A stretch of 64,000 nt of DNA. Source: Antedon mediterranea (lineage: Eukaryota > Animalia > Echinodermata). The notes beneath the pieces were generated by a model. The model was not told where the DNA came from, did no database searches, and saw nothing but the letters and a program-made list of their open reading frames with translations. Of this stretch, positions 1-64,000 are shown piece by piece. The position numbers and the translations under genes are program-made. How positions within the stretch are numbered: the stretch's first letter is position 1; every line of letters begins with the position of its first letter. The DNA lies in the NCBI RefSeq assembly GCF_964355755.1, contig NC_092670.1, forward strand, positions 10,650,795-10,714,794, in the 5' to 3' direction.

Positions 1-7
1 ACATACT

Positions 8-18261: not shown

Positions 18262-18415
18262 ATTAATCATACATATACTGTTGCATTGACTGCCTCATAA
18301 ATGCCTACTACATTAATCATACACATACTGTTGCATTGACTGCCTCATAAATTCCTACTACATTAATCATACACATACTGTTGCATTGACTGCCTCATAA
18401 ATGTCTACTACATTA
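18262..18415. repeat. 50-bp minisatellite, 3 copies (same at 59805-59958)
   Basis: Unit ACATTAATCATACACATACTGTTGCATTGACTGCCTCATAAATGCCTACT. Confidence 0.9.
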
Positions 18416-19975: not shown

Positions 19976-19989
19976 AAAATATCCACAAA

Positions 19990-20361: not shown

Positions 20362-20719
20362 AATAGTTCCGGTAAACTTTTCGAAATTCCATTGCCATAC
20401 TAGTGATCGGAATGTTGTTGTAAACACTTGGACTGACTAAGAATCTTTTATCCATTATTTTCCTTACATCTGCATACTTTGCTTAATTTGTACAAGCCAC
20501 TTGATTGATTTTACATAATAATTTTACAATAGCGTTTTCAGGAGTCTGTTCTCACATAATTGCATTGTCATAAGATGTTTAAATCACTTAAAACCATTTA
20601 TTCACCTTTGTTTTATTGTTACCCCCCAATTCTTAACTTGTTTCTTTATATTTACGTTCTTGTACTTTTCTGTTTTTACGTAACATTACCAGGCATCTTT
20701 TATTACATACTATTGAATA

Positions 20720-22453
20720 AACTGATCACTACTTCCCAAAGCAGACCTAGTATTGATTTATGTAAGCTCCCTACGTATTTACCTGCTAATAAACCCCCTA
20801 ATGTAAAAGAATGGGAAATGTACAATCAATTAAGAAAAGTTAAAGTAAAAAAGTCCCCGGGCCCTGATAATGTGCCTAACAGATTAATAAGAGATTTTGC
20901 ATGCGAACTAAGCATCCCTATGACTAATATCTTAAATGCCTCCCTCAGTGAGGGTCATGTCCCAACTATGTGGAAAGATGCTATTGTTACTCCGGTTCCC
21001 AAAGAAAATGGTTGTACTAGGGTTGACAAATTTCGACCAATCTCACTTACATGTATCCTAGCTAAGGTAGCTGAGGGCTTCATTAAAAAATGGCTCTTAA
21101 CAGATATCGAGAAAAATCTTGATAACAACCAATATGGTTGCCGTAAACACTTTTCTACAACCCATAATTTGGTTGATCTACTAAATGTGTTCTATGAAGG
21201 TAGTAACATTCCCAAATCTGTTGGTCAGTTAGTTTTAACTGACTTTAGTAAAGCATTCGATTGTGTTGACCACACAATAGCAGTTTCTAAATTAGTAACA
21301 CTTGGTTGTAGACAACAAGTACGCTATAAATCCACCTTATCAATGAGTGTTAATCTAACATGTGGCGTCCCTCAAGGTACGCTCCTTGGGCCTATGATCT
21401 TTCTTGCTCTAATTAATGATGCCATGCAAGACTCGCCATGTAAAACTTTGAAATATGTAGATGATTTGTGCATAGGACAGATAGTAAAAAAGGATGTAAT
21501 TTCCTCAATTCAGAATGATGTTGCTTTACTGAATGTATGGTCTAATGAAAACAAACTAAAACTTAACCCAACTAAATGTAAAACTATGTATTTTAACTTT
21601 CAAAGAAATCAATATGAACATGAACCCCTTTTCATTGGTAATGCTACAATTGAAATCGTTAATGAAACTAAGTTACTAGGTTTATGGATACAAGCTAACC
21701 TCAATTGGGACCGTAACGTTAAAGAAATTGTATCCAAAGCCAGCAGACGTCTGCATATATTATGTAGATTAAGAAAGTTCAATCTTCCGAAATTTGATCT
21801 TGTAGATGTATTTAAGAGTTACATAAGACCAAGTGTTGAATATGCTGTCCCAGTATGGCATTCTAGTCTCACTAAGAAACAAAGTGATATGATAGAATCT
21901 GTCCAAAAAAGGGCTTGCAGAATAATATTGTGTAATGACTACATATGTTATGACCAAGCACTCAATGATCTTTCTTTATACACTTTATCTGATAGAAGGC
22001 GTAATCTATGCTATAAGTTTGCTCTGAATTGTTCAAAAAGTATTCATTTTGGAAAATGGTTTCCAGTGAAGAATGTAAGTAACATGAAACTACAGTAAGA
22101 CGTGTAAAGTATCAACAACCCAAATGCAGAGTTGAAAGATATAGAAAAAGTGCAATACCATACCTTATCTCGCTTCTAAATGAATAATCAGTATATATCA
22201 CCCAGTACAGCTTTGCGATTCTTATTGATGCTTTTAGGTGTTTTTTTCTTTTCTATTTTAATATTTTAAGCTAAACTTTTTGAATGTTCCTGTATTGTAT
22301 TTCTTGTGTAAATTGCCTCCTTTTTTATATTTTTTTATCATTGGTTTTGTACTTTTATACAAATTTTAATATTGAACAAATGTAAATGTCTTTGTAATTC
22401 AGCTAAGGCTGCGATAATGATATTGAAATAAATGAAATGAAAAAAAAAAAAAA
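20720..22453 (+). mobile_element. CR1/L2-group LINE RT with 3' UTR and GAAAT/poly(A) tail (internal deletion)
   Basis: KSPGPD, FRPISLT, NQYG, DFSKAFD, GVPQGTLLGP and YVDD motifs; AATAAATGAAATGAAAAAAAA tail. Confidence 0.9.
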
Positions 22454-22485
22454 TTATGTACCGAATTTAGCAAGCTTGTTTGGAT

Positions 22486-22990
22486 ATTAATCATACACAT
22501 ACTGTTGCCTCGACTGCCTCATAAATGCCTACTACATTAATCATACATATACTGCTGCCTCGACTGCCTCATAAATGCCTACTACATTAATCATACACAT
22601 ACTGTTGCATTGACTGCCTCATAAATGCCTACATTAATCATACACATACTGTTGTATTGACTGCCTCATAAATGCCTACTACATTAATCATACACATACT
22701 GTTGCATTGACTGCCTCATAAATGCCTACTACATTAATCATACACATACTGTTGCATTGACTGCCTCATAAATGCCTACTACATTAATCATACACATACT
22801 GTTGCATTAACTGCCTCATAAATGCCTACTACATTAATCATACACATACTGTTGCATTAACTGCCTCATAAATGCCTACTACATTAATCATACACATACT
22901 GTTACATTAACTGCCCCATAAATGCCTACTACAACATTAATCATAAACATACTGTTGCATTGACTGCCTCATAAATGTCTACTACATTAA
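22486..22990. repeat. 50-bp minisatellite, ~10 copies, within a direct repeat (22465-23605) of 18241-19005
   Basis: Same unit as at 18262. The flanking sequence is a diverged copy of the segment on the other side of the LINE block. Confidence 0.9.
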
Positions 22991-23819
22991 AACAAACTAA
23001 AATCAGTAAATGTAGTTACTGCAGTAAATGCAGTATAATAATTTTAAAATTATACCTATTGAATGTCCTTTGACCTTGTGAGTTGTTGCATTACAGAATA
23101 GAAGTTGTTGTTGTACTGTGAGTGCATTTGAACATGTTAGATTTGTTTCAGGCCCGTAAGAACCAATTTTGAAGTGGGAGGTCATCCAAAAATTTACGTT
23201 ATAGAGTGTTTAGAGAGTACTTTGCATTCACCTTTGGGCTTTACATTATGTGAGACGTGGATAATAAAAAAATATCAAATGATTAGTATTTGTTGTTTAA
23301 ACTTTTAAATATTGTGGTCTAATTATGACATGACTGGTGAAAACATGGGGCTATTTCACAGAGGCGTAGAATTATTTTGCATGAGATTCACGTCAATATC
23401 ATTATTAGAATTGTTTTGTTCTACTTTTCAGATGTTTTTAGAGGCTTTTCTTTAAACATTTGTCCAATTTCTTTAAGCTTTAGTATGTTGCATATACCGT
23501 TATTTTTAGTCCTACTGTATGGGCCTTGGCTATGATACCGGATTTTATAATATAATGGCTTGTCAAGAAAAGCGGTAATCTATTTGGCCTTTGTAATACA
23601 AAAAATAGCTATATATTAAGCTAAATTAGGCCTAAGACTAAAATATCAACAAACGAAAAGTTATTCACGAAAAATGTTGTACCTGAAAACGTTATTTGCA
23701 GTATTAATTTGAAATCAGTTTCTTTTATTTCTAACCTAAATAATTTCCAAATATTTTGGTCAAATTCAATTTCCGTTCTTTTATTTGATATTTTTTACAT
23801 GATTTGCAAATAGAAATAA

Positions 23820-24085: not shown

Positions 24086-25487
24086 TTTTATTTAATGTAC
24101 AGTTTTTTTGATACGAGTAGTTTTAAAAAACCTATTTTTTTACAAATGTATTGAATGCACTAACCTGCAGTTCCTGTTTATCCACTGATTGTCAACTTAT
24201 AGTTAGAGTCCTCAGGACCAATGCCAAAGTGAGAATATCTTGCAAACTTCATTTTGTCTAAGTGGTCCCTCATCTCTACTAAGAGCTCAAAACCTCCGTC
24301 AGATGTTATACGATTGATTTGTTCGTTACCAAGCCAGAACTCTGTGTTCACATTTCCAAAACCCTCTTTGTATTCTAACCAATTACGGTAGAAATCAACT
24401 GATCCATCTTGTCTTCTCTGTATAACCTGATAATGAAATGATCTATACTCTAAAGACTTACTAAAACATTGATGGCAAGCCCATCAACTGGAGTAAATGG
24501 AAATAAATGAATTAAGAACCTGACCACTAATATTACGATGAAGGTACCATGTGTAAACTTGTGTATTTAACATTAATATAATGAACGCCGAACACTTGGA
24601 CAGTAATCCGTGGATTAGCTTACCACTTGCGTGAACCACGCCAGTCTTGTGCCGTACATGTGAACGTACCCTTAGCAGGGAGTTGTACTCCCTGCCCTTA
24701 GTAAGCTCTGCCAAGGCTTTTGGAATTGCACTTGCTGATATCTTTGAATAGGTTGGCCTATACTTACCGTCCAACCTCCATCTTTTCTCATGTCACAGTA
24801 TACAATTAACCGTGGACCTCCATCAATTTGCCGTATCACATATTCACCACTCACAGCATAAGGATAATGTTGTAAAATGTCACCACAGTCCCTCATAAAA
24901 CACTCTAAAATTGCACAGTTGGCATTGGCATTACACGATCACATTTTGTTTTGAATACGCAATATTTCAACATAAATTGTGAAGGTTTTATTCAGTGATG
25001 TAGCCACAAGAAATAAAGTGGTGCGGTTGTTGCAAGAAAAAGGAACACTCCCATGTGCAGCCCATGGTTGTCAAAGGCCTGTGGTGAAAAAGTGGTCAGT
25101 TTGAAACCGTACCTACCTGCCCTGTTATTTCAAAGTATTTTTTAACAAAAAGGTTGTTAATAATGTTAGCATACAATTCATTTTTTTAAAAGAGGATTTA
25201 ATTTAAGTTTTTTCAACTTGTTTGCATTGTCGTGAGATGTTTTCCAAGTGATTGTACTAACGTTCTTGTGACCAATGAATCATTCATTCATAGAAAGTAC
25301 TGATGTAGAAGTCGGCGACTCTACAATGGACCAGAGACCTGAGTTGTATATTTTTTTTGTCTCCATTTTTCGTTTAAATACTTTACTTACTTGGAGGAAT
25401 TGGTAGACACACGTCATCCTGACATGAGTGAAAGGTAGCCAGTACAGCTAACATACAGCAGATCATGAATGCTTTAGAATACGTTTT

Positions 25488-29059: not shown

Positions 29060-31080
29060 CTTAAATTTACTTTCACCTTGACCTTGAAAAATACATCAAC
29101 ATTCATCTTGTGTTGCTTATGTCAGTAATTTCTTTGATCAAAATCAATATATTAAGATATATAATATGTAGCCCTACATTCATTGTAAGTTTTTATTTCA
29201 TTTTTAATCATTTCAAAACAAGATTCAACACATCATTTAACAACTGCAGTGAATATATATTATTTAAAATACTCCTAAAATTTGATTAAACTACTAATTA
29301 TCATTAATGAAAATATAAGAAATACTGATTTATGATTAGATATCAATTTGATTTTATTGATAATTAAAAGCAATGAATAATAGTAATGTTATTTTTGAAT
29401 AAATTGAAATAATAATAAAATCGATAATTTTATAAAATAAATTTAAACAAATCACATTTTTGGAAATATTATTTGACTATTAATTTTATAACATTTTGAA
29501 TAAATAACTAGCTTTTATTATAATAAATTAATAATTTAATGATAAAGCAAAATGATATTTAAAAGAAACAAAGAGGAATCTTTGTTATTCCTATTACTAT
29601 TATTATTCATAAGTCAAATTATTCAATAATTACAGATTCTAATTTCTTTTATGCTGCTCTCTTAACTATCATAACTGTTGTTTTATTTTTAATATTTTGA
29701 TAGCAAGTCCGGCCTAGGCAGGCAGGAATTCAACGTGAATATGGAACCAATAGATAGATAGAAAGTTTCAATTTTTTCTCAAGTTCTTGAGTGCAGATCA
29801 ATTGTCAAAAAAAAAGTGAAAATTATTATGTGCAAAAGGAAATGTCTCTAAAAAAATGTTCAGCTCTAATAAGCAAATAAGTTTAGCGGTAGGATTGCAA
29901 CAATTAGGCCTATTCACAGAGTGAAGCATTACATTTGTTGATACAAACAATTTCCTAGGCAGAATTAATAGCAACAAAATATACCCATCAATGATGATGT
30001 GAATATCCATATAAAAAATACTGTTTTTATTTAATAAAGGAGTTTGCAAAGTTGTATACTTACGCTTTTTGACCAGGACCTAAAGGAAAATGAAATAAAG
30101 TATAGTAGTAGTTCAACATTTATTTATTTCTATCAATGGTACAATGATAAGAAATCATATAAAAACATTGTAATATTAAACAATAGGCCTACAACAATAT
30201 CATATCTTGCAAGAAGAAATTACTTGAAGGAAATGTAATGAAATTGTTAGCCCCATCAGTTTGAAGTCACGCCCACTATGTAGTTGCATATCAACGCAAG
30301 ATTAGACGTAATTATGGTCCTTGTATGTAAAAATGTAAAACTTTTACCAATACATTATTCATTTTATTGCCAATATATTCAGTTTTTCTGTGATTCTTAA
30401 TACATTATTTTTATTTACTAAATTATTTACTAAATAAAGTTAGCTGTTTCAGGTCAATCTATAAACATAAAACACGCTATCAATTTAATGTATTGAACCC
30501 GAGATAAAATAACAAGCTGAACAAACAATTCTGAAAATTTGTAAACTTTAAACTCAATTTTATAATTACATTAGATAGCACAATCAAACTAAATCGTACC
30601 AATTAGTCAATTAAAAAAAATTGGATCTAAATTTGACTGGTAACAGATTTACAAACTTTTGAAGGCCTAATAGAAACACCTGTACATGCATCTATTGAAC
30701 TAATTTTTGTTTTTGTTGAAACATATTAAAACACATTAAAGTTGTTCATTTCATGAGTACTCAATTAATCAGTTGATGCTCAGAACATCACTCACCTGAT
30801 TAATGTGATTCAAATGAGACGCTTGAATGTTGTTGTTTTCAACTGATGTTTCTTCCAGTATTTTTTTACTGATTTGACAAACACGATATTTCTGGTTATA
30901 GTTGACCGACAAGCAATATAATTTCTCGGAACATTCCAGCAAACAATTTACACGGCTTATATTCTTCAACTCGTAACTCCAACCATCAAGAGCCTGGCCT
31001 CGTATAACTGTATAAAATGAATTGGTCGAAAGAACACTGACGACAAAGGGCAGAAGAAAGACAATCAAAATAGTATGCAT
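29060..31080 (-). pseudogene. Internally deleted cluster copy: intact signal+PAN exon (30796-31080) plus last-codons remnant (29649-29684) and 3' flank
   Basis: MHTILIVFLLPFVVSVLS...CLLEC...CLSVNY with a CAG|GTGAGT donor. 1.1 kb downstream only KTTVMIVKRAA* survives, followed by sequence homologous to 16590-17207. Confidence 0.7.
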
Positions 31081-36559: not shown

Positions 36560-37110
36560 CAGTCTCCACCTTTCGTAAAGCGACCGACTTTAAAAAACAG
36601 CCATCTCGTAAGTAACCACCTCCTTAAAACGACCATATATCGATATGATGCCAGTGTTATTATAATTATGTACCTGGTGTAAGATAAAGGCTATTCAGGT
36701 TTGAACGATAACAGTTATTGTACCACCAAGCACCTTTGTATTGCTCAGCACAGTTACTACTGCATTTCTTATCATTGCCTCTGTTGTATGTTGTAAATTG
36801 TTTACCATTGTGAATTGATGCCAAAGAATCACCTAAACTAAGCGGCAATCTCTCTCTATGGTCTATTACGAGAGGTGGTGGTCCTTTGGAAGAGGTGGTC
36901 GCTTACGAGTTGGTTGATCATGATAAGCTTTCCCTAATGAGAGGATATGGTCGCTTACGAGAAGTGGTCCTTTAAAAGAGGTGGTCACTTACGAGAGGTA
37001 GTGGTCGTTAAGAGAAGTTGTTCCTTAGGAGAGGTCACTAACGAGAGGTGATGAACGTTTAAGAGAGGTGGTCACTTATCAGAGGTGGTCGATTATGAGA
37101 AGCTTTCTCT
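36560..37110. mobile_element. Degenerate TIR element with GAGAGGTGGTCGCTTAC-type subrepeats enclosing a FReD exon fragment
   Basis: The left arm has CTCGTAAGTAACCACCTC/AAGCGACC and the right arm has several GAGGTGGTC(G/A)CTTACGAG, i.e. opposite orientations. Confidence 0.55.
36645..36832 (-). pseudogene. Orphan truncated FReD terminal exon (C-like)
   Basis: TTTAG acceptor, then [55 protein letters not shown], then an out-of-frame NNTGII remnant. Confidence 0.85.
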
Positions 37111-38719
37111 TAGAGAGAAACGTTGTCAGTATATTAGCCAAAAAAGTCAAAGATTTTAGTTAAGTTTAATTTAGTTAAATGTAAAATTATTTTTCCAGTT
37201 AAAGAGAGCTGATAAACTCAGTTCCTAGATTTCCAACTTTCAAAACAAAAAATATGTTGAGTTTTTAAAAGATTTCTTAACATTTTGTCCTGTTGTTACG
37301 TTAGTGGTTACATTTTCTGGTTAACATTCAACTTGTTGCAAAACAAAGATTAAAAACATCACTTAAACATTAAAAATAATTGGATTTGAAAACTACTAAT
37401 TATCACTAATGAAAATATAGGAAATATTATTATTATTTTTATTAAATATCAATTTAATTTTATTAATAAAAACGATAAATAAAACGATTAATAATAATAA
37501 TGTTAATTTTATATATGTATGAGCATAACATTTTTATGTGATAAATTATTGTAAACACAGTTGATATAAACTTGTACGTATTATTTGATATCCTCCTGTA
37601 TAATCCCACCACTACTTTATGTGTAATTTTACAAACAGGCATATCCCCGGGTATAGTCCCAGTATTGACTTTTGGCCACTTCAGATGAGTTTTTACAATA
37701 AATGCTTACCGTTTTTTTTTTAGCGGGATGAAATTATAACAGAGGATACGGTAATAATAAAACATGTTCATTGTTAAAAGTATTATAACAATTGAAATAA
37801 TAGTAAATCCATACAATTAAATACATCACAGTCGTTTTGATGGGACAATATTTGATTTAGAACATTTGGATTAAGTAACTAGCCTTTATTATAATTTAAT
37901 GATAAGGCCATATGTATAATAGCTATAAGAAACAAAATTGGAATCTATCCTTATTCCTATTATTCATAAGTCAAATTATCTAATAATAATTACTACCTGT
38001 GCCATCATCAGGTCTGAATCATGACAACTCTCTTATGGTACTCTTTTAATCATCATCACTGTCTTCTTGAGACTGTAGTGATTAGTATGGAAATCATACC
38101 AGATGATGCCTGTCGCATTATCGGTACCTGGTTTAAGGTAAAGCCCATTCAGATTTGAACGATAGCAGTTATTGTACCACCAAGCACCTTTGTATTGCTC
38201 AGCACAGTTATAACTTCTCTTATCATTGTCTCTGTTGTATGTTGTAAATTGTTTATCATTGTGAATTGATGCCAAAGAATCACCTAAACAAACAAAATCT
38301 TCAGTTTACTTCATTAATATTGAATTTATTTGTTTTTAAAATAAAAAATAATAATAATAAAAACAATATTACCTACAAACCCAACTTTTTTCTCCTCAAA
38401 ATATCAGTATCAATAAAACACCTGAAATGTGTTTATAACATCATGAAGGTATGATTTTATTTGATTAGGTAAAGAAATCTATAATTGTGTAATAAAAATA
38501 TTCTACTGCAGTTACGAGATATATGTGCATGTTATCAGACCTCGTGCAATGATTTCGTTCGTCGGCTTTTGTACCTGATTTTGAATCCCATTTTCTCACT
38601 TTCTTACTAGATAAGCTCTTTCACTCTGTTTATATTTATTATAACCACGATAAATATTGGCATCCAGATCTTGTTGGCCGATTGCTACGTTCTGAAGAAC
38701 TCAAATGGCCGATTGCTAC

Positions 38720-39935: not shown

Positions 39936-41042
39936 AATTTGAACCCACAGAAGCCAATAAAACAAAAAGAAAAAAGAAGAAAAAACAAGAAGATAAAACA
40001 TGGATCAGATTTGGAGTTTGCAGAGTTTGTGGAGCTGCAGATGCTGATGGATGAATGAACCCAGACAAAGAAGAGCAAAAGAAGAAAAAACGAAGATTAT
40101 TGGATGAAACAATTGCAGGACCAGCCCCAGGAATAGAAAACGGAAGACAGAAGAGACAACGCCGAGGACAAGGAAGAAGATCATTAACTGTTTTTTGCGA
40201 CCTTTTGTTTCACTTTCTTTTGACATTTTAATACTATTTTTGAACGCTTTATATAAATTTATAACATTTGTTTAATACTTTGGATGGCCTGGCTGATTTA
40301 TTTTTAAACATTATTTTGGACGTTAACCTATAGTATATTCAGCTTGGATTGAACACAATATTAACGATGTGGTAAGTGATCCATCATTTCTAGTTCTTTT
40401 CTATAACCTCCTCTTTCTTCGGGTGATATATTATTATTATAGATATAATCATATTGTAACATGTTTTTACGTTCGGGAAATTCGGCTGTTAATACTCCAA
40501 TTTCAACACACAGTCTTATACCTGGTAAAGATACTAGCCCGATTACCCCATCACCCACCTCATTAACACAACTGGATTTAGCCCTTTCTGGCAACACTTC
40601 AACATAATTTTCAGCCTGTAACGTCCCACTGCTGGGCAACGTTTCTCTGCTAAATCATGACATTATTTTCAATAATAAATGATTTCTGTCCACGCTGAAC
40701 CCTGGCAGTACTTACAGTAATGATGATGCACCGTTTTCGTTTTTTGGAATGAAGTAATAATTAAGGATATCTTAGAATATTGCCTACACTTCTTACCGTC
40801 CAATTGCCACTTTCCCTAATGTCACAGTACACAGCAAACTCTGGTCCTCCATCACATGGCTGCATCACATATTCACCACTCACAGCAGAAGGATAACATT
40901 GTAAAATGTCTCCACAGCCCCTCATAAAACACTCTAAAATGTACAAAGTTTGATGTGTTTAACACATCAAACTATATTTTAGTAATTTTATTAATACATT
41001 TAGGCCTACTCAATTTTGTATTTAAACTTTGTACTTTCAGAG

Positions 41043-42688
41043 AAAAGGATTAGTAAGGCAGGATACGAATCATTGGGACCGAAGAAGACCAGTAAGACAG
41101 GATACGAAATATCGGGATCGAAGAGGACCAGTAAGACAGGATACGAATCATCGGGACCGAAGAGGACCAGTAAGGCAGGATACGAATCATCGAGACCGAA
41201 GAGGATCGGTAAGGCAGGATACGAATCATCAAAACCGAAGAGGATCAGTAAGACAGGATACGAATCATCGGGACCGAAGAGAACCAGTAAGGCAGGATAC
41301 GAATTATCGGGACCGAAGAGAACCAGTAAGGCAGGATACGAATCATCGGGACCGAAGAGGATCAGTAAGGCAGGATACGAATCATCGGAACCGATGAGGA
41401 CCAGTAAGGCGGGATACGAATCATCGGGACCGAAGAGGACCAGTAAGGCAGGATACGAATCATCGGGACCGAGGAGGACCAGTAAGGCAGGATACGAAAT
41501 ATCGGGATCGAAGAGGATCGGTAAGGCAGGATACGAATCATCGGGACCGAAGAGGACTAGTAAGGCAGGATACGAATCATCGGGACCGAAGAGGACCAGT
41601 AAGGCGGGATACGAATCATCGGGACCGAAGAGGACCAGTAAGGCAGGATACGAATCATCGGGACCGAAGAGGATCAGAAGGCGGGATACGAATCATCGGG
41701 ACCGAAGAGGACCAGTAAGGCAGGATACGAATCATCGGAAGAGGACCAGTAAGGCAGGATACGAATCATCGAGACCGAAGAGGACCAGTAAGGTGGGATA
41801 CGAATCATCGGAAGAGGACCATTAAGGGAGGATACGAATCATCGGAAGAGGACCAGTAAGGCAGGATACGAATCATCGGAAGAGGACCAGTAAGGCAGGA
41901 TACGAATCATCGAGACCGAAGAGAACCAGTAAGGGAGGATACGAATCATCGAGACCGAAGAGAACCAGTAAGGCAGGATACGAATCATCGGGACCGAAGA
42001 GGACCAGTAAGACAGGATACGAATCATCGGGACCGAAGAGGACCAGTAAGGCAGGATACGAATCATCGAGACCGAAGAGGACCAGTAAGGCAGGATACGA
42101 ATCATCGGAAGAGGACCATCAAGGGAGGATACGAATCATCGGGACCGAAGAGGACCAGTAAGACAGGATACGAATCATCGGGACCGAAGAGGACCAGTAA
42201 GACAGGATACGAATCATCGAGACGGAAGAGGACCATTGAGGGAGGATACGAATCATCGGAAGAGGACCATTAAGGCAGGATACGAATCATCGGAAGAGGA
42301 CCATTAAGGGAGGATACGAATCATCGGAAGAGGACCATTAAGGGAGGATACGAATCATCGGAAGAGGACCATCAAGGGAGGATACGAATCATCGGAAGAG
42401 GACCATCAAGGGATCAGATTCGAATCATCGGAAGAGGACCATCAAGGGAGGATACGAATCATCGGAAGAGGACCATTAAGGGAGGATACGAATCATCGGA
42501 AGAGGACCATCAAGGGAGGATACGAATCATCGGAAGAGGACCATCAAGGGAGGATACGAATCATCGGAAGAGGACCATCAAGGGAGGATACGAATCATCG
42601 GAAGAGGACCATCAAGGGAGGATACGAATCATCGGAAGAGGACCATTAAGGGAGGATACGAATCATCGGAAAAGGACCATTAAGGGAG
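41043..42688. repeat. Compound minisatellite: 39-bp units grading into 34-bp units
   Basis: GGATACGAATCATCGGGACCGAAGAGGACCAGTAAGGCA (39 bp) on the left and GGATACGAATCATCGGAAGAGGACCAT(C/T)AAGGGA (34 bp) on the right, interleaved in the middle. Confidence 0.95.
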
Positions 42689-45136
42689 TGTTTAATTGCA
42701 GGAATGGCTCAAAGATTTTAAGACATATTGTACACATTATTATTTAGATCTAGATGTAAAGTTTGATGCCATATTAAGTCATTTGGGGGATCGGCTAAGG
42801 AAACTAGGTACATTACCAAATGTCCATATTGGGTACAAGTAAAAATTCCAGAAAAGCCATTCAAGTATTACAAACTTTTTTACCGTTCTGGGGGACAATT
42901 ACATCTTTAAGCGTGAGGTTAGCACTCGTAAAAAAGAAAAGCATTACATTCAGTTGGTAAATTAACTTCTTTAAACATGACTGACAAATTAATAAATAAC
43001 ATTTTGAATTAAACTAAATATATACAGTAGAATGGACAGAAAAGGAGAAAGAAATACTATAAAAAAAATCAAACAAAGAAGAAACTTCGTCCGTTTATGT
43101 ATTGAATTGGAAAAGTTGTGTATTGAGGGCGCTGCGTTGTCATTCTGTAATTAAACATACAGGTGATTGTGTGTGATATAATGCCGTGCGTAAGCAGAGC
43201 GGGTCTTTTGTTCGTTACAGTTGTTATTTTTCATTTGCAGTTGTTAGCATATATGTAAGTTATCGTATTATATACTGTATTTAGCAACTGAATTACATGT
43301 AATTTACTTGGTTATAATAACATTACAGTTCTTGTTCATATCGTAGGCCTATGTAGGCCTATAAGCAATTTACCAAACTAATAATCATGCTGTGCTTAGC
43401 AATAAATGAGTCTTACATTTACAATATTTATCTTAGTTTTGATATGTTTCGAATGATTTTCGGGCGACTATTATATGTAGTCAATGTGCTCGATCAGAAG
43501 TAATGGGTCCACACATGTGTTTAGGGCAAGTTGCCGTGTCACGAACATCAAAGAAATTAGAAACCCTGTCTAATGAGGAAAATGTTAAAAGATACTAACA
43601 TCAAAACAAAGGTAAAATGTGTAAAATATAGTCTGATATCGGGTAATAAATACATAGTTTTAAGTATTATAATAGGATACAGTTTTCCTTCTGTAGTTAA
43701 ATTAATTAAATTAACTAAAACTAAACTTTAGTACTGTGCTTATTCCGGGGGTAGGGGAGTTACTCCCTGTACAAACAACTCTAATTTTTCAGAACCATCG
43801 TCGTACAGCCGTCGCTAATCAAACAATTCTTCATCTATACACACACACACACCAGGAAAGAGGGTTCAAACCATCCGTTAAAATGATTTACCATATAACA
43901 AGGATTTGACCATGTAAACAATGTTTTTGTTTGGCTGTTAATGGATTCATTTTAACTCAACAGCCAAAACGAAAACATTGTTTATTGAACAGGTTTATAC
44001 ACGCTAGCACACATCTCATAGACCTTCCCAGACGTGCTTTGGGGGTTGAGGATGCATGATCCTAAATTTGTCCTTTTTAGGTCATATGCATACATATTAT
44101 TTTCAAAAGCAATATATATTTCTATTTCTATATTTCTTTTCACATTTACTTTAAATAGGTTAAAATAATGAGTGTAATTGATGCGTCAAAACTATGACCT
44201 CTTCTGATTCCAACACATATAGACCTATTAACATTGCTTAACATTAAATCGTTGAAAATTGAACTTGTTCACAATCTTAATATAAATGTGACAAGGTGAC
44301 AATTTCTTTGTTACAAAAATGATACGTAGGTTAATCTATTTTGTGTATTTTAAACTCTTCTATGAAGAAATTTCAACTGGAAATTCTTTAATAAACAAAT
44401 TATTGTACAACTATGCCATTCGACTTGTAATATTTTGGGCTTTCTTCCAATTTTTGCATACCTATACGTATACCAATTTCCATTTCCTTTTCCATCGTCT
44501 ATTGTAGCAAACGGTAACAAAATATCACTACCAATCAACATTGGTATAAACCTCCATATAAAGAATCAATTTATTTAATATAGAAGTTTGCAAAAATTTA
44601 TACTTACTCCTTTCAATGTAACAAAATTTAGGCGTTTGAATTATGTTTTCAACTGATGCTTTTTCCAGTTTTTTCTGACTGATTTGACAAACACTATCTT
44701 TCTGGTTATAGTTAACAGACAGGCAATCGGATTGCTTGGAACATTCCAGCAAACAATTTAGTTTATGTATATTCTTCAACTCGTATAGTAACTCCAACCT
44801 TCAAGAGCATGCCCTTGGAGAATAACAGTATAATTATATGTATTGATCGAATCATCACTGATGACAAATGACAGAAGTAAGACAATTAAAGTTAGCATTT
44901 CGACGTTTTTAGAATTATGTAGTGACGAATGAAACGGTTATTGTGCCAATACAATCTACAATTCGTCTTAAAATACTCGATGATACTGTATGAGTTACCT
45001 AATGTGGTACGAACTATATTTTTATCTTTTACATATTCCATTATCCAATCACTTTACATACAACCCAGTGTGCACCAATCAAAATGGTGATAGTAAGATA
45101 TGATTTACATAAACAAAGTTAAACATGAGGATATAG

Positions 45137-47440
45137 TAGGGAGGCCAATGTGAGCTTTTTCATCATTGGGGACATTTTCTGTTAATAGCAGGCAACCATG
45201 TGGAATATGTTCCTTATGGGATGAAAAAAAAAATAGGGGTGGATGCCGCTCTCAAATTTCAAGTTAAAGGTCATTTTTAAGGTTATAAGGTCAAATATGG
45301 TAAAATCGGGATTTAAGGTGTTTTCAACAACTTATAAGCAAATTAAAACATATTTAACAATAATTGACATCATGTCGATGATGATCAAGTTTTTCAATAT
45401 ATCAACTTAAAAGTTTAAAGGTCATTTTCAATGTTATAAGGTCAAATTATGGTAAATTCATGTTTTTTAGCTGGTTCAACAATGTACAAGCAATATGAAA
45501 CAAATGTAACAATTATTAGATCATTATTGACGTATTATAGAAGATGGTTAAGTTTAAAGGTCATTTTCAAGGTCATAAGGTCAAATAGAACACAGACCTG
45601 TTAATTATTATCAGTATTAATAATTTAAATAAATATTAATAAATAACTAATTTTCATGAGGATAACCTGCTGGGGCTGATGGGTAGTGATGTGTCAAAAT
45701 TACCAGAATTGTCCTGGGGAGATTTTAAACTTGACATTTCATGGGGAGTCATGGAATATAAAAATAACCGGAATTTAAGATTTTTAAGAATTTTAAAAGA
45801 ATCACAGAGGGGTTGTGGGTTGGAAGAGACCATGGAATATCAACATGAGCGGAATTTGTACTTGGAATGTTTTAAACTACTGGTGTAGGATTGGGAGAGG
45901 TAGCCGCACTGGGGTGGGTATTTCTTCTATTACATAATATAATTGCATGCATATTAGCCAGCTGGGTATTCAACAATCACACATGCATATTTACGGCAAC
46001 AAATATATCTGGCTCTTTCATTTCATTTTGACCATAATATTGATTTACAAATTCCATTTACAAGGAGTGGATGCGTTACGAATGATTTCCAGTATGACTG
46101 CTTCCCATAACCATCAAATGATGATGTCTTGACACCTGTAAAGGTACGAAAGCTGTTTTGATTATCCGTAATATTTTTTCGGCCACTTTTTTGTTCAGTA
46201 TACCAGATATCGTCCTTTAGTATGTTTGCTATAAGACTTAAAAAGTGCACATTATTACACATCAACTGTCATGTATAAGCACATAAGCTTCTTCGTGATT
46301 GATATAGCAGATCATTTCTCCTTGTTTACCTTGCATCTTGAAAATCTACCCACTGTTACCAACTCGTATTATTCTTGAACTGTTCTCTATGTATTCATTA
46401 TCTAGGTAACTAAAATGCCTGACAGCCATGTTTACTGAATCCTTAAACTAGTAATGAATGATTATCATGTTTTTAAGTTCCAGCTTCTGGAACATCTGTG
46501 AGTATGTCAACGCCATTCACCATTAAATTATGTATGAAGTCAGATTTGACTAAAGAAATTGAAATTGAACTATGATCAGGCTCTACTTTATGATATTGAC
46601 CAACTCCAATGGTTGGTCAGCAGATTTTCTGTCAGCTTTTTTTCGTAAATTTTGTTTTGATATGCACTATTAGAAATGGTTGCCTTATAGAAATCAGCAA
46701 AGGTTTAGAGCGATGCTTTCTCAGTGGCTTATAAAATTCTACTGTTTTTCTCTTTCTTTAAATGTAAGCTCTTCCACATCATCCGTCAGGTTGAAAAGAT
46801 ATTGTGTATGTACCATGTCATGCAGAACCTATCACTGAATGAATTGTTTCTTGTTGTACCATAGGCCTATAATTCTATAGGCCTAACAAACTTCTCAATA
46901 TTACGTTATATATAGATAGTAATAATATTATAGTAAAATATGAATATTTTGGCACATATGGCGTTTCATACCTATAATAATTTAACTATTTTCCCGACTA
47001 AAATCGAAACGCTGACTGGTGGACAACATAAAAAAAGACAAATTAACAACAGACTGGGGAAAGTCTAAAAAAAATTTGTTGTAATTAAAAGATGTTTTAT
47101 CTGAATTATGTTAAAACAAAATTTTGAGAAAATGACACTTTTGTATTTAATTTCCTATATTTTTATGTGTAGAATAAAATGCTTATCTTATAATTACTAT
47201 AATATAAAACATTAGTTGATCTTTGTTGATGATTTTCCATGAATAAAGTAAAAATCCCATATTTTGACCTTGTTTGACCTTTTGACAATATAAACTTACC
47301 TTAAAACCTAAAACTGAGAATGGCATCCACCCCTATCATTTTTTGTCAACCCACAATGGATACATTCAACATGGTTGCCTGCTATTAACAAAAAATGCCC
47401 CCCAAACCTTTTCTAGAGGACTTTTGAGTATTTGGCCTCA
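45137..47440. mobile_element. Non-autonomous DNA transposon with long imperfect TIRs (Academ-like termini, tentative), ~240 bp upstream of the copy C start codon
   Basis: GAGGCCAA...TGTTAATAGCAGGCAACCATGT...GGGGTGGATGCC is matched by GGCATCCACCCC...ACATGGTTGCCTGCTATTAACA...TTGGCCTC. The element is bracketed by the direct repeat GTTAAACATGAGGATAT. Confidence 0.7.
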
Positions 47441-55583: not shown

Positions 55584-58500
55584 CTAGATTTGAGCTTGTC
55601 ACTTAGTTAAGTTAAAACAACAGCAACAACAACAATCATGTTAACGTGTGTGCACGTTTGTGTTTGTGTGAATAACCTAAGCGACAGGTTCAACTCAAGT
55701 TAGCGTTAAGTAATGGAATGCAACGCAAGAACGTAAGCGCAATACAAGCAGTTGACCAATTAACAAGAGATAGTTCGAATAATCCATTGCTTGCGTTGCA
55801 TTATACATTTGCGTAGTTTGTATTTATCTCCATTTGACAATAATATTTCACCACTGCAATCAATAAGTTGTTCAATATTCAATATTCGACTCTTTAAAAT
55901 CTCTTTTAGATCATAAGACATGAGATAACTTAATAACATAATGTGATTTCCAAGAAGTTTCATATGTATATTTCTAATACAGACTGCATATTTATAATAT
56001 ATATGATGAAGATGTGTAACAAATACATTACTCTTTCAATCTCTTTTGATGATTGTTTACAGAACAAAAACAGCTACAACGATTTTCAAGCAACAATATT
56101 TAAAATGTCTTTCAAGTCAAGAATCATAATGGTATCACACTTTTCAAGATTGGAGGGTAAATCATTAGGGCGCAAATCCTATTAGGACGTTAGCGCAACG
56201 GATTATTCGAACTGTCGCTTGTCATTGGTCAACTCACGTTGTGTTTGCGCTTACGTCATTGCGTTGCGTCTTAGTTGGAACCATGCTTTAGGCTCAATGC
56301 TGACTAGATTTGAACTTCCGCGCAAACATAACGTGCACGTTAAAAATATGAACGCAGAGAAAATTGATTATACCATCCCTTGACCATTAATAAATATATT
56401 AAACGTGTTGAATTGTGTCTAGTCTGTGTCATATAGTATAAACAATACTACTACATTGTAGCATAGGTGAAATTAGGAACGCAGTTAAATTCAAATTTTT
56501 TTAATGATGTCATCAAAATTAAACATGAATATAACAATTTTGGAAGATAATTATCTGGAGATCGAAGAAATTCGGGAACATAGAAGCGAGATGTGCGCTC
56601 TTTAGAATGTGATGAATTATAACGATAAAGATGAAAATCCCTCTTTTTAAATTCAGCTCAACCATATATGATGACGTCATACCGATAGGCAGCAAAATCA
56701 TTTTATACATGAATTCGTATCTATTTCAATAGCATCTCTATTAATGATTTCCAAAATAATGTTGCATTTGTTGATTGTGCAAGGTAAAATTACAATGTCA
56801 TGTATTCAAATAGTATCCTAATAATGCAAGAAGTTTCGTTAGGTAAAAACAAACAGTACATTTTAGATTTAAAAGATGGCGGATTTTGTTGTGAATAAAA
56901 TGAAGATGTTTTTGTTTTGAACAATTTTATTTCATTCTAATAAACATTTATTTCCTTCCTTTTTTCTTTTTTTTAGAATCATGACGATATCATGTAAAAA
57001 AAGTTGAATGGATTATTGATTATGGATTGACGTGCGGCCGTCATACGAACATAGGTTGCGGGTAAAATTACCCACAAAACTGGCGATTTCAAATGTACGT
57101 ACCACCTATAATACATTGTCGTTTACAGAAACGAATAAATGATGATTTATGTAGTCAACTAAAATTAATACCATGGGAATTACTCCCGAAATAGAAACCT
57201 GTCACAAAATGAGTCCAAATGTTTGATTTGGACTCATTTAAACAAACCCAATTTGTGTTTTGTATGTAACATTATGGTTGAACGATGGGTACAAAGAGGA
57301 ACATTTTTAAAATAAATTCTTTACACTCAGTAACGAAATATTTGTTCATGTTTTATAGGCCTATAAAAATTATATCATTAAATACAGTAGAACATTTGCG
57401 ATTTAATACTTGAAGGATGGGTACAAAGAGAAACAATTTTTACATATACTCTTTATTCACTCAGTAACGAAACATTATGTTCATGTTTTATAAGCATATA
57501 AATATTACACCACTAAATACAGTAGAACATTTGTGAATTAATACTTTGTTAAAATCAGGGTTAAAACCCCACCATTCCTTTTACCGCAACTCCCCCCTCC
57601 CCCTTCTGACTTTGGGAATTTTTTTAATGTAGTTTAAAACCTTCACAGACAATTGCAGTCATTTTGATAGCCATGTATGGTTACGTGCAGAAACAGAAAT
57701 TTGTATAACGAACAGAAAAATACAAAAAGTGGAAAAAAGGTTGGGAATTTTGACCCATAACTTGTATTCAAGATGGCGGATGATGTTCAATACAGTTTAG
57801 AACCTTCCTGTACCATTATGGTAATTTTGATACCCCATATGTGTACAGTAACAACAATGTGTATAACTAACATACAAACATCAAAGTACAAGCAGATTCA
57901 TAAGTTAAATTCATACAAAAAGAATTGATCAAATTTTTGTTTTTTCTGAAAGTGATTTTTGACGCTAATACATTCAAAGTTGAATTTTGTAGTTGTTTAT
58001 TTGCTTTTTAATATTTATATACTTTTACCTTTACCTTGGAAAATACATTAGCATTCATCTTGTGTTTCCTTATGTCACTAATTTCTTAGATCAAAACCAA
58101 TATAATAAGATATATAATATGTAGGCCTACATTTATTGTAAGTTTTTATTTAATTTTTAATCATTTCAAAACAAGATTCAATTTAAAAACTATTGCAAAT
58201 ATCCATTGAAAATACTCCTAAAATTAGATTAAGATTTATGATTAGATATCAATTTGATTTTATTAATTAAAAACAACAATAATAATAATGTTACTATTAT
58301 GCATTTATTAGCATAGTTTTAAAATATTAATTAAATTCTTAATAAAATTAATAATTTTTTTACATTATATTATTTGGTATAATATTTAAAAATGATTAAT
58401 AACAACAAATTCATTGTTACTATATTATATACTTTAAAATTCAAAATAAAAAATTCCATATAATAAATTTTAAACAAATCACAGTTGATATGACATTGAC

Positions 58501-58631
58501 AATATATTGGTTATTAATGTTATAACATTTGGATTATTATAATAAAATAATTATTTAATGATAAGGCAAAATGATATTTAAAAGAAACAAAGAAGAATCT
58601 AAATTATTCAATAATTACAGATTCTGATTTG

Positions 58632-58863
58632 TTATGGTGCTCTTTTAACCATCATCCCTTCAAAAGCATTCCAGTTGATGCCTTTAGAATCATGTGTACC
58701 TGGTGTAAGGTAAAGCCTGTTCAGGTCTGAATCATGACAGCTTTTGTACCACCAACCACATTTGTCTAAGGCCTCTATCAAAAGTATACAAGTTGATGCC
58801 AGTGTAATCAGCTGTACCTGGTGTAAGGTAAAGCCTGTTCAGGTCTGAAACATGAACATTCTC
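58632..58863 (-). pseudogene. Two post-stop variant cassettes of the FReD binding loops (copy D)
   Basis: ENVHVSDLNRLYLTPGTADYTGINLYTFDR, then in a shifted frame GWWYKSCHDSDLNRLYLTPGTHDSKGINWNAFEGMMVKRAP*. Confidence 0.85.
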
Positions 58864-59114
58864 TTATGGTGCTCTTTTAACCATCATCACTGTCTTCTTG
58901 AGACTGTTGTAATTACTATGGAAATGATACCAGCTGGTGCTTGTCACATCATTTGTACCTGGTGTAAGGTAAAGGCCATTCAGGTTTGAATGATTACAGG
59001 CATTGTGCCACCAAGCACCTTTGTATAGCTCAGCACAGTTACTATGTCTATTCTTATCATTGTCTCTATCATACGTTGTAAATTGGTGACCATTGCTGTA
59101 TTCCAAAGAATCAC
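58864..59114 (-). CDS. Copy D FReD terminal exon (upstream exons lie beyond the window end)
   Basis: TTTAG acceptor; GDSLEYSNGHQFTTYDRDND...CAELYKGAWWHNACNHSNLNG...KKTVMMVKRAP*. Confidence 0.88.
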
Positions 59115-60564
59115 CTAAACAAACAAGATAATATTAGATCATCTTTAGTTTACTTCATAAAATCTTAAATTAACATTCATTTTAAAATATTTGTTTTTCT
59201 TTGTGTTATAAAATAAAAGATATTTGATATACAAAAAGGGAAAATAATAATATACAGTATACCCTAAAATTCGTAATATATTTTATAATTGATTTCATTT
59301 ATCTGTAAATTGTATGCCATAAATTAAATCATAGCACAATTATATAAATAGTTTTTTTTATATGTACTGTATATATATTTTTTATTAACTATTCTTATAT
59401 CATAGTTGCTTTATTTTAATATTTTATATATTTTGTTTTGTCATAGTTAATTTTACTTTAAAAGCAATGCATTTAATAATGAAGAAGAAAGAAGAAAACA
59501 CAAGTTATATGAAACTGTACTAGATTCACACTATGATTTTTAATTTCAATTTCTTTAACTTTATTTTGTGTACTTTTAAATCAGAGTGGTCCTTAGTTGT
59601 TATAACTGGCTCCTTTTTGAGGGACCACTGTCTAAAAAATAACTTTAATGTGCGAGTGGGCTATGTTATTGTAAGGTACAAGGAGGATTTTTACAACAAA
59701 AATTATTTTGGGTAGAGAATTCTATAATTCTGTAGTTACTGGCAGTAATTATATTTTGTTATATCTAACCTGTTTGTGCAATTATTTAGCAAGCTTGTTT
59801 GGATATTAATCATACATATACTGTTGCATTGACTGCCTCATAAATGCCTACTACATTAATCATACACATACTGTTGCATTGACTGCCTCATAGATGCCTA
59901 CTACATTAATCATACACATACTGTTGCATTGACTGCCTCATAAATGTCTACTACATTAAAACAAAAATCAGTAAATGTAGCTACTGCAGTAAATGCAGTA
60001 TAATAATTTTAACATGATCTATTGATAAGATAAGTTGTTGTACTGTGGGTATGTGAACATTTTAATAGATTCGTTTCAGGCCTGTAAGAAGGAATTGCGA
60101 AGTGGGAGGTCCATCCAAAAATGTACTTTATAGACAGTTTACATTCAAGATGATCACCTTTGGGCTTTACATTATATTTGAGAAGCGACATCAATTGATA
60201 ATCAAAAAGTATCAAATGATTATTATTTGTTGTTTAAACTTTTAAATATTGTGGTCTAATTATGACATGACTGGTGAAAACATGGGGCTATATGTCACAA
60301 AGGCGTAGAAGTTTTTTTTGCATGAGATTCACTTCAATATCATTATTAGAATTGTTTTGTTCCATTTTCAGATGTTTTTAGAAGCTTTTCTTTTAATGTT
60401 TGTCCAATTTCTTTAGCTTTAGTATGTTGCGTATACCGTTATTTTTAGTCCTACTGTATGGGCCTTGGCTATGATCCCGGATGTTTATAATATGGTGCCT
60501 TGTCAAGAAAAGCGGTCATCTATTTGACCTTTGTAATACAAAAAAATCAATATTTTTAAAAATT

Positions 60565-63500
60565 AATTTAAACGATCACAAAAGATCTGAAATATCTAAA
60601 GGTAACTTTACAGGTTTGATGGTCCTTGACATACAAAAGGCCTTTGATACAGTCAACCATCAGATATTATTGCAAAAACTGGTTCATATGGGCATTGATA
60701 AAGAAGAAAGATTGCAAACAAATGACATCAGTAAATGGCGTTCAGTCCCAACCATGTACTATATCTAGCGGAGTTCCCCAAGGTAGCATTTTAGGACCTC
60801 TTTTTTATGTTATATGCTGAAGATACAATATTGAAGTCCAAATCTGGCATCATGTAACAACTGGCTTATACTGTAAACAACAAACTATCATTACATCTTG
60901 ATAAAACTGAGTCAATATTTTTTGGTACTAAAAGAAAACTTAAGAATGTTCTTGATTTTGCTGTTATTTTTAAAACTAAGTTGATATGTAAGAAGAATAT
61001 GATCTCATATCTTGGTTGTTTGCTTGATGAAGACCTGTCTGGAGAATCTATGGTTCAAAAAGTTCTTGGTAAGAATAATTCAGGACTTAAATTTTTGTAT
61101 AGACATTCTGCATGTCTAAATTTCTTTTCTCGCAACATTCTATGCTCTGCACTCATTACCTGTCACTTTGATTATGCATGTTGCTCCTGGTTTCCAGCTG
61201 TTTCTAAAAAACTTAAACAAAGACTTCAAAACAGTCAAAATAAAGTTGCTAGGTCTATAAAATAAATATATAAATAATCGAGCACATATTGGTAAAGACG
61301 AACTGAACCAAATCGGTCAATTATTTTTAGAGGATAGAATTTGCCAACTCAAACTAAATCATGTTCATAAGATTTTTTATGGAAAATCTGTACCTTATTT
61401 GACTGAAAAGTTTAAAAGAGTTTCATCTAACCACCTTTATAGGACTAGAAGTAGTGTCAATGGTTTCAGTTCCTAAATCTGATAGTCAAATATCTCAAAC
61501 TTTTTATTATACAGGCAAAAAATATCCACAAACCGTTTCAGATTTTCACCAACTGTAAGTTAATCTTTGAGAAAATTCTTTCCGATTTTTTCACACTCGA
61601 TCCCAGGCCAACAATCGAACGGGCCCACCGAGATGGTAAAAGTATGAACGGTAAGCCAAGGCATATCATTGCCCGTTTTCTCTCATACGCTTCTAAGATT
61701 GAAGTTATGAAACAACGAAGTTCTGCGCTAGATAGCCAGAAATTTTATATCATAGATGATCTTACTGCTGCCGATCTACTGGAAAAAAAGAAATGGAGAT
61801 CACAAGTAAAAGAGATGTACAATAAAGGTACCAAGCTTCGTTTTACGGCTGGAAAATGGCGAACTTCAACTGGCATTCCGGTAAACTTTTCGAAATTCCA
61901 TTGAAATAGTTCCGGTAAACTTTTCGAAATTCCATTGCCATACTAGTGATCGGAATGTTGTTGTAAACACTTGGACTGACTAAGAATCTTTTATCCATTA
62001 TTTTCCTTTCATCTGCATACTTTGCTTAATTTGTACAAGCCACTTGATTGATTTTACATAATAATTTTACAATAGCGTTTTCAGGAGTCTGTTCTCACAT
62101 AATTGCATTGTCATAAGATGTTTAAATCACTTAAAACCATTTATTCACCTTTGTTTTATTGTTACCCCCCAATTCTTAACTTGTTTCTTTATATTTACGT
62201 TCTTATACTTTTCTGTTTTTACGTAACATTACCAGGCATCTTTTATTGCATACTATTGAATAAACTGATCACTACTTCCCAAAGCAGACCTAGTATTGAT
62301 TTATGTAAGCTCCCTACGTATTTACCTGCTAATAAACCCCCTAATGTAAAAGAATGGGAAATGTACAATCAATTAAGAAAAGTTAAAGTAAAAAAGTCCC
62401 CGGGCCCTGATAATGTGCCTAACAGATTAATAAGAGATTTTGCATGCGAACTAAGCATCCCTATGACTAATATCTTAAATGCCTCCCTCAGTGAGGGTCA
62501 TGTCCCAACTATGTGGAAGGATGCTATTGTTACTCCGGTTCCCAAAGAAAATGGTTGTACTAGGGTTGACAAATTTCGACCAATCTCACTTACATGTATC
62601 CTAGCTAAGGTAGCTGAGGGCTTCATTAAAAAATGGCTCTTAACAGATATCGAGAAAAATCTTGATAACAACCAATATGGTTGCCGTAAACACTTTTCTA
62701 CAACCCATAATTTGGTTGATCTACTAAATGTGTTCTATGAAGGTAGTAACATTCCCAAATCTGTTGGTCAGTTAGTTTTAACTGACTTTAGTAAAGCATT
62801 CGATTGTGTTGACCACACAATAGCAGTTTCTAAATTAGTAACACTTGGTTGTAGACAACAAGTACGCTATAAATCCACCTTATCAATGAGTGTTAATCTA
62901 ACATGTGGCGTCCCTCAAGGTACGCTCCTTGGGCCTATGATCTTTCTTGCTCTAATTAATGATGCCATGCAAGACTCGCCATGTAAAACTTTGAAATATG
63001 TAGATGATTTGTGCATAGGACAGATAGTAAAAAAGGATGTAATTTCCTCAATTCAGAATGATGTTGCTTTACTGAATGTATGGTCTAATGAAAACAAACT
63101 AAAACTTAACCCAACTAAATGTAAAACTATGTATTTTAACTTTCAAAGAAATCAATATGAACATGAACCCCTTTTCATTGGTAATGCTACAATTGAAATC
63201 GTTAATGAAACTAAGTTACTAGGTTTATGGATACAAGCTAACCTCAATTGGGACCGTAACGTTAAAGAAATTGTATCCAAAGCCAGCAGACGTCTGCATA
63301 TATTATGTAGATTAAGAAAGTTCAATCTTCCGAAATTTGATCTTGTAGATGTATTTAAGAGTTACATAAGACCAAGTGTTGAATATGCTGTCCCAGTATG
63401 GCATTCTAGTCTCACTAAGAAACAAAGTGATATGATAGAATCTGTCCAAAAAAGGGCTTGCAGAATAATATTGTGTAATGACTACATATGTTATGACCAA

Positions 63501-63995
63501 GCACTCAATGATCTTTCTTTAGACACTTTATCTGATAGAAGGCGTAATCTATGCTATAAGTTTGCTCTGAATTGTTCAAAAAGTATTCATTTTGGAAAAT
63601 GGTTTCCAGTGAAGAATGTAAGTAACATGAAACTACAGTAAGACGTGTAAAGTATCAACAACCCAAATGCAGAGTTGAAAGATATAGAAAAAGTGCAATA
63701 CCATACCTTATCTCGCTTCTAAATGAATAATCAGTATATATCACCCAGTACAGCTTTGCGATTCTTATTGATGCTTTTAGGTGTTTTTTTCTTTTCTATT
63801 TTAATATTTTAAGCTAAACTTTTTGAATGTTCCTGTATTGTATTTCTTGTGTAAATTGCCTCCTTTTTTATATTTTTTTATCATTGGTTTTGTACTTTTA
63901 TACAAATTTTAATATTGAACAAATGTAAATGTCTTTGTAATTCAGCTAAGGCTGCGATAATGATATTGAAATAAATGAAATGAAAAAAAAAAAAA
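60565..63995 (+). mobile_element. Duplicated block of three LINE fragments (RT fragment, ORF1 fragment, RT + tail) in the last intron of copy D
   Basis: Same lesions and junctions as 19020-22453. Confidence 0.9.
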
Positions 63996-64000
63996 TTATG

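Follow-up and report, generated by a model that had tools for sequence, protein, structure and literature searches.

Partial terminal-exon copies behind the stop codons of crinoid fibrinogen-related genes: probable scars of recombination in a lectin-like cluster

Known systems and the crinoid cluster

Zhang et al. 2004 is the work reportedly cited for the diversification of FREP3 in the snail Biomphalaria glabrata. The FREPs of this snail, FREP3 included, are clustered and are reported to diversify by point mutation and gene conversion, with somatic conversion and hypermutation of FREP3 also reported in the part of the source available to us (PMC10903818). In the sea urchin, the available parts of two papers link repeats and segmental duplications to the instability and fast diversification of the SpTransformer (Sp185/333) genes (PMC5103432, PMC3091723), and for another echinoderm, Apostichopus japonicus, the accessible portion of a third describes expanded tandem FREP clusters and their expression during regeneration (PMC5638244). 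We found no literature on the diversification of crinoid or Antedon fibrinogen-related genes and, in sources available in part, no description of post-stop exon copies as donors in fibrinogen-related genes. To our knowledge, crinoids are the echinoderm class least studied for immunity. In the chicken, immunoglobulin V genes undergo pseudogene-templated conversion, in which tens of upstream donors serve one acceptor in a somatic, AID-driven and one-way transfer.

The locus considered here is a stretch of 64,000 nucleotides of Antedon mediterranea, hereafter the window, and by analogy its closest kind would be the clustered, fast-diversifying immune gene families of invertebrates. Its DNA is AT-rich (26-43% GC) and holds retrotransposon fragments together with a minus-strand row of lectin-like genes, in which stop-to-stop frames give three-exon fibrinogen-related domains (FReDs) with PAN exons upstream. 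A Ty3/gypsy-like pol fragment with rve, RVT_1 and integrase C-terminal domains occupies 2-2300 (+) in the last intron of copy A, and two identical LINE-type reverse-transcriptase ORFs of 512 aa lie at 20560-22095 (+) and 62103-63638 (+) in the last introns of copies B and D. An approximately 50-base tandem satellite adjoins the LINE insertion at 22465-23062, with single units in the B and D introns (18262-18416 and 59805-59959).

The Pfam profile Fibrinogen_C (PF00147; cut-off 22) matches the terminal exon of copy D at 71.1 bits and the middle exon of copy C at 111.8 bits, which places the window genes among the FReD (PF00147) proteins, and an annotated relative, P0015, has the domains PF00024 and PF00147. 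Used as a protein query, the D terminal exon finds mainly 'fibrinogen-like' proteins of Antedon mediterranea encoded on one 41.4-Mb contig. The protein P0013 of this species matches the three FReD exons of gene C at 98-100% identity (tblastn), and P0048 matches the exons of copy A, whose last exon lies outside the window, at 96-98%. The whole FReD of P0013 aligns to the solved domains of angiopoietin-related proteins, tenascin, ficolin and FIBCD1, with E down to 2.7e-51. The motif set D.DND, NCA...WW..C..SNLNG, which we take to be the calcium-site and disulfide framework of the C-terminal FReD subdomain, is found in the exons of D, B and C and in 24 Antedon paralogs, and it aligns to angiopoietin-related protein 2 and tenascin-R. 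The genes are PAN and FReD lectin-like genes in a crinoid cluster. The terminal exons of D and B are open as far as their own stops, and an incomplete germline gene that needs flanking cassettes, the feature of lamprey VLR, is not what is found, as the germline exons of gene C give the complete annotated protein P0013 at 100% identity.

Set against the available part of the snail account, the crinoid locus is alike in having clustered FReD lectins, diversity in one part of the gene and conversion invoked among many close paralogs; the snail proteins, on the other hand, carry IgSF domains and are reported to vary somatically and in the IgSF region, whereas here the partner is PAN, variation falls in the binding end of the FReD and the differences observed are germline ones (PMC10903818). 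The N-terminal immunoglobulin-superfamily domains of Biomphalaria-type FREPs are lacking, the upstream exons matching PAN_1 (24-29 bits, cut-off 21.4) and not Ig, and the portion of that source at our disposal makes no mention of post-stop partial exon copies for the snail genes. The likeness to Sp185/333, as far as the available text of those papers goes, lies in echinoderm immune-type clusters, near-identical duplicates beside divergent coding elements, and repeats proposed as recombination substrates (PMC5103432, PMC3091723), although the protein family is unrelated and the mosaics there are exon 2 element patterns flanked by microsatellites and not post-stop exon tails. With Apostichopus japonicus, the locus shares an echinoderm lineage-specific tandem FReD expansion, and neither hypervariable loops nor mosaics nor repeats behind the stop are described for its FREPs in the accessible part of that paper (PMC5638244).

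Partial exon copies behind the stop codons

The terminal exon of copy D lies at 58867-59133 on the minus strand, as placed by its ORF, Pfam and tblastn of Antedon proteins. Its coding part (58867-59115) is the C-terminal third of the fibrinogen-related domain and ends ...SLKKTVMMVKRAP, followed by the stop TAA at 58864-58866. The 232 bases 3' of this stop consist of two partial copies of the last 120-140 exon bases. Within the main exon, motif positions and alignment define a conserved anchor of 36 bases at 58954-58989 (minus strand, SNLNGLYLTPGT), and homologous anchors stand in the two units at 58813-58848 and 58695-58730; main and cassette anchors are identical at 32/36 positions and the two cassette anchors of D at 36/36. 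Cassette 1 (58750-58863, minus strand, delimited by alignment and absent from B as a 118-base gap) reads ENVHVSDLNRLYLTPGTADYTGINLYTFDRGLRQ... and runs from its anchor SDLNRLYLTPGT through the loop variant ADYTGINLYTFDRG to a junction (LRQ...). Cassette 2 (58632-58775, minus strand, with its own TAA at 58632-58634) begins further 5' than cassette 1, at ..KCGWWYKSCHDSDLNRLYLTPGT, carries the loop HDSKGINWNAFEG and reads (LD)KCGWWYKSCHDSDLNRLYLTPGTHDSKGINWNAFEG-MMVKRAP, its end being ...GWWYKSCHDSDLNRLYLTPGTHDSKGINWNAFEGMMVKRAP and the stop; its frame differs from that of cassette 1, it is without the SLKKTV/GLKTTV codons, and it matches Fibrinogen_C at 29.3 bits. Repeat detection returns three copies in D at spacings of 118 and 141, and blastn aligns unit 1 with unit 2 at E = 2.5e-22 and the main exon with unit 2 at E = 1.6e-18. 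In the whole 64 kb, a 24-base tail motif occurs four times and a 14-base anchor motif five times, always on the minus strand and at these loci. Similarity of this kind is far above chance, and units and exon tail are homologous.

Copies B and C carry related structures, also on the minus strand. The B terminal exon (17325-17591, stop at 17322-17324) is followed by a single cassette at 17208-17321, in frame with the main ORF and ending MMVKRAP and a stop. The terminal exon of gene C, which corresponds to P0013, lies at 38036-38305 (tblastn), its stop at 38033-38035, and behind it stands a stub of 36 bases, ESCHDSDLMM (37997-38032), in which the post-stop junction is as in B and D and is followed by two deletions. 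The original prediction had described just these partial repeats behind the TAA of B, C and D, and both its coordinates and its count (two units in D, one in-frame unit in B, a stub in C) proved correct. It had further proposed that the B unit is a 118-bp recombinational collapse of the two in D; B and D do differ behind the stop by a gap of exactly 118 bases, and the B cassette is identical to D cassette 2 but for four substitutions within 21 anchor bases, but those four are unexplained by a simple collapse. A simple recent duplication in place within D would likewise not explain why the loops of its two units differ at 9/35 positions, and in terms of the direction of change in unit number neither simple collapse nor simple duplication fits.

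Two further exon remnants lie in the window, both on the minus strand. Lying 1.2 kb downstream of gene C, at 36669-36839, a truncated extra copy of its terminal exon has kept the splice acceptor and about 91% identity to the C exon, meets an in-frame TAA straight behind the anchor and ceases to be homologous shortly beyond the first loop. An orphan exon tail at 29541-29680, reading KTTVMIVKRAA and a stop, has unrelated DNA in front and the family 3'UTR directly behind it; here the exon tail runs straight into the UTR without a cassette, and a cassette-free state, probably the ancestral one, thus exists.

The anchor itself contains ..CAG/GTACA.. preceded by a pyrimidine-rich run, and it might be proposed that it acts as both donor and acceptor of an intra-exonic splice that swaps the main loops for cassette loops in the mRNA. 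The joined frame from main exon to cassette 2 is indeed open and ends at the cassette 2 TAA. Against this, the four real donors all have G at +5 (GTAAGA, GTAAGT, GTTAGT and GTGAGT) where the anchor offers GTACAA/G/C, the product would be without the conserved strand, and cassette 1 would yield a nonsense tail; no such joint occurs among the run contigs either, which is weak evidence, as these short contigs break at anchors. We consider such splicing extremely improbable. Stop-codon readthrough as the purpose of the units is rejected, since the in-frame readings of D and C end in nonsense tails and a meaningful one is found only in B, whose unit had a one-in-three chance of being in frame.

The units themselves carry several signs of decay. 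First of all, residues that the coding tails hold constant have changed: in an alignment of 26 coding tails (24 Antedon proteins together with B and D), SNLNG is present in 25/26, and its G, like the PG after the anchor, in 26/26, while the cassette equivalents read SDLNR in both D units and SDLNG-I...PD in B. Second, D cassette 2 is without 5-9 codons of the conserved strand SLKKTV/GLKTTV, the junction from unit 1 to unit 2 is out of frame (the spacing, 118 bases, is not divisible by 3), and the C unit is nearly all gone through its two deletions, 36 bases being kept. Third, the four substitutions between the B and D cassettes comprise, in the native frame, three amino-acid changes and one silent change. 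Finally, a 47-aa query found no protein ending like cassette 2 at E 0.1 or better in the protein database, where there were three candidates, and this is weak evidence. The cassettes look like decaying relics: changed invariant residues, indels and an out-of-frame junction agree with neutral evolution and random indels, the pattern that the original prediction had itself named as telling against a donor role. Homology, a common junction, differences in copy number and degenerative indels, the features of a relic of partial tandem exon duplication or unequal crossover, are all found.

The reading that we prefer, with a probability of roughly 65%, is that the post-stop units are non-coding scars of out-of-register recombination between the 36-base anchors and not a maintained donor store. 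Of the explanations offered at the outset, that of 3'UTR debris fits best, to which we would add that the debris is probably itself a product of recombination.

Block exchange at the binding end and the question of donors

The B block (16136-22458) is a segmental duplicate of the D block (57563-64000), with 98-99% identity in megablast, and the last introns of both contain one and the same LINE insertion. Aligned with MAFFT, the two blocks differ by 75 substitutions and 133 gap columns overall. There are 14 substitutions in the 4.8 kb of intron and LINE at 59200-64000 (about 0.3%) and three in the 600 bases of 3' flank at 58000-58600 (about 0.5%), compared with 23 in the 137 exon bases at 58911-59047 (about 17%) and four in the 21 bases of cassette anchor at 58699-58719; one further substitution stands at 59100, in addition to the 118-base gap. 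The Poisson probability of at least 23 substitutions in 137 bases is about 1e-32 at the background rate, and about 1e-23 when all other aligned DNA is taken as background. Every differing codon is non-synonymous (17/17), with dN 0.123 and dS 0.022.

The exon patch and the cassette patch are parted by 55 identical bases, and since these bases are conserved throughout the family anyway, a single exchange may have replaced all 350-400 bases at once, carrying the cassettes along with the exon. The middle FReD exon of copy B holds a nonsense codon directly ahead of its donor site, TAA at 24178-24180 on the minus strand, at a position that reads TAC (Tyr) in copy C; despite its open terminal exon, B is thus a pseudogene in this assembly. 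Because of this nonsense codon, and because the best identity of B and D to any annotated protein is at most 74%, selection on B itself is unlikely to have caused the B/D patch, which is most simply read as an import from other paralogs. Recombination in this cluster is real and strong, and the more notable fact is that two duplicates with about 99.7% identity elsewhere have had their binding end replaced block-wise.

It had been suggested that the architecture can feed loop variants into the coding exon. The architecture exists, and the family does recombine at or near the anchors, but the local cassettes are not the source of the local exon differences. At the alignable columns that vary between B and D, the cassettes agree with B at 9 sites and with D at 2-4, while C agrees with D at 9 and with B at 7. 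As the B-like cassette states are mostly also carried by C and the pseudo-exon, it is D that is the altered copy, and the new states of D are absent from the cassettes. The longest identical loop runs between main exon and cassette measure 4-11 bases, the maximum being B against cassette 2. This 11-base run includes the AAA GGC ATC (KGI) that the original prediction had singled out as common to the B exon and the cassette, and it is real; it is not diagnostic, however, as 7 of its 11 bases are the family-wide GGCATCA and, among the 26 coding tails, KGI occurs in 4 and GI in 22. No donor-specific tracts are found in the main exons of the window when compared with the cassettes, and the cassettes do not account for the states at the sites where B and D vary. 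For the B/D exon differences seen here, the local cassettes are not the donors.

Among the annotated proteins, two are mosaics. The last residues before the stop are ...TADYNGINW(N/D)RYFDLLRQQ in P0048 (gene A) as well as in P0122, an end that corresponds to a cassette-1-like module (ADY.GIN...FD..LRQ), including the LRQ after FD..L. Over a run of 28 residues the head of P0122 matches that of B exactly, while past the anchor it is different throughout, and GWWYKSCH is common to P0048 and the 5' extension of cassette 2. Both proteins are head/tail mosaics broken at the anchor, which could have arisen by anchor-to-anchor unequal exchange between main exon and cassette or, equally, by exchange from exon to exon. 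Removal of one base from the intact LKTTVM codons of a run contig would also appear to give the LRQQ end, and both P0048 and P0122, which are without the final strand (...LK(K/T)TVMMVKRAP), may be damaged genes.

The last 24-27 cassette bases are identical to the main tail at 26/27 positions in B and D, while the C exon differs at 2-3/27, and the identical states of the two D anchors are in the minority among the paralog contigs (58836/58837). Because the cassette tails match the exon tails so closely, and because the D anchors are identical throughout despite their different loops, exchange that involves the cassettes, with the exon or with each other, is ongoing.

Such exchange is not required of a purely passive relic and counts against the scar reading, as do P0122 and P0048, the product expected from cassette capture by anchor-to-anchor deletion, and the persistence of the cassette architecture in several paralogs and in the runs of a relative. 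The same observations favour a maintained germline reservoir, in which the anchors would be recombination sites and cassette loops would be moved into the exon by unequal crossover or conversion, giving new lectin specificities, those of P0122 and P0048 included: the P0122 mosaic joins a B head to a tail like that of P0048 and cassette 1, GWWYKSCH is found on both sides, and an anchor-to-anchor deletion preserves the native frame of the cassette. We nevertheless regard a reservoir as unlikely. There are only 0-2 units per gene, changed at invariant residues and without the conserved strand, and the unit of C has been lost; the local exon differences do not follow the local cassettes, and the protein database search for a cassette-2-like end, weak as it is, was negative. 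Furthermore, both candidate capture products stop early, at LRQQ, without the MMVKRAP strand, the cassette-bearing copy B is itself a pseudogene, and transfer could have run from exon to cassette as well as from cassette to exon.

The comparison with chicken immunoglobulin genes bears on the same point. In both, an expressed gene is accompanied by silent partial copies that keep the framework and vary the loops, but in the chicken there are many upstream donors, whereas here each gene has 0-2 downstream, degenerate units and none of the acceptor sequence could be traced to a donor tract; neither donor tracts in the acceptor, within the window, nor a sizeable array of donors with intact frameworks, as among chicken pseudo-V genes, is present. 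We also think it quite unlikely that these genes have a built-in module-swap device, in which the 36-base anchor would divide the binding end between a head and a loop/tail module, anchor-to-anchor recombination would repeatedly move spare modules from behind the stop in and out of frame, and P0122, P0048 and the 17-replacement differences between B and D would all be the outcome.

Origin and spread of the units

Returning to recombination scars as our preferred reading, the sequence just 3' of the stop aligns across B, C and D, the exons of C being about 84% identical to those of B and D (blastn), and since it does so, the second exon tail is likely to have come to lie behind the stop in one ancestral event that preceded the split of B, C and D. 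The number of units per copy is now none, a stub, one or two. Run contigs extend this picture beyond the window, within the scope that contigs of about 100-250 bases allow, broken as they are at anchors common to many paralogs and hence blind to anchor joints, to the 118-base form of B and to splices. A 195-base contig in runs X1 and X8 has one full-length cassette-1-type unit whose tail reads FDRGLKTTVMMVKRA and then passes into UTR. Contigs that run from exon tail through the stop to a cassette anchor occur in X1 (record 5) and X8 (records 27-30), and also in the runs of a second organism, X5 (record 10) and X6 (record 19). These stop-crossing contigs each differ from D at 4-16 positions, and the post-stop architecture is thus spread among paralogs and probably present in a related species. 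Run X8, which we guess to be RNA, has no depth over the intron 59114-59400, unlike the three other runs, a contrast that is no proof of transcription; the units are predicted, and likely, to reside in the 3'UTR.

The contigs also bear on whether the assembly is at fault, in which case the B/D pair or the extra unit of D would stem from a spurious tandem duplication or from haplotypes joined end to end. The B and D flanks are, as noted, nearly identical, and run X1 may be the assembled sample. Contigs with 0 differences, however, cover the D-specific stretches 58627-58724 and 58886-58983 while B-state letters occur in the same run X1, similar stop-to-cassette contigs come from other paralogs and from the runs of another organism, and an artefact would make neither the shared junction of C nor the degenerate residues. 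An assembly artefact is thus very improbable.

The scar reading would proceed as follows. At the start, the second exon tail would have arrived behind the stop either by a partial duplication long ago or by unequal exchange between paralogs of two types. Later, misaligned pairing of anchors during recombination or conversion between paralogs would expand, contract and patch the units, and the same process would shuffle loop modules among the coding exons, the units riding along in the predicted 3'UTR. An occasional misaligned exchange could bring a cassette loop into frame, and P0122 and P0048 look like the product or the reciprocal source of such an exchange. A coding exon may thus capture a cassette now and then, but this would be a by-product of the architecture and not what it is for.

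The window thus presents a lectin cluster whose ligand-binding end changes by blocks, with near-identical surrounding DNA and with recombination scars alongside. If it is true that the scars also serve as substrates, they would offer a simple germline route to lectin diversity; if they are debris only, the units would still be markers for the order of exchanges in the cluster. For annotation, the locus calls for caution in two respects, namely, the exon-like open frames in 3'UTRs and the truncated gene models with the LRQQ end. The P0013 model of gene C starts at a short exon, 46361-46429, without a PAN domain, and PAN-domain exons with signal-peptide-like starts lie on the minus strand at 30787-31080 and 44609-44898 and are part of none of the annotated proteins matched. 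Between the annotated first exon of gene C and its FReD exons sits a minisatellite (41004-42744) of 39-base units with 38-43% GC, several frames of which are open and read as GYESSGPKRTSKA-like repeats.
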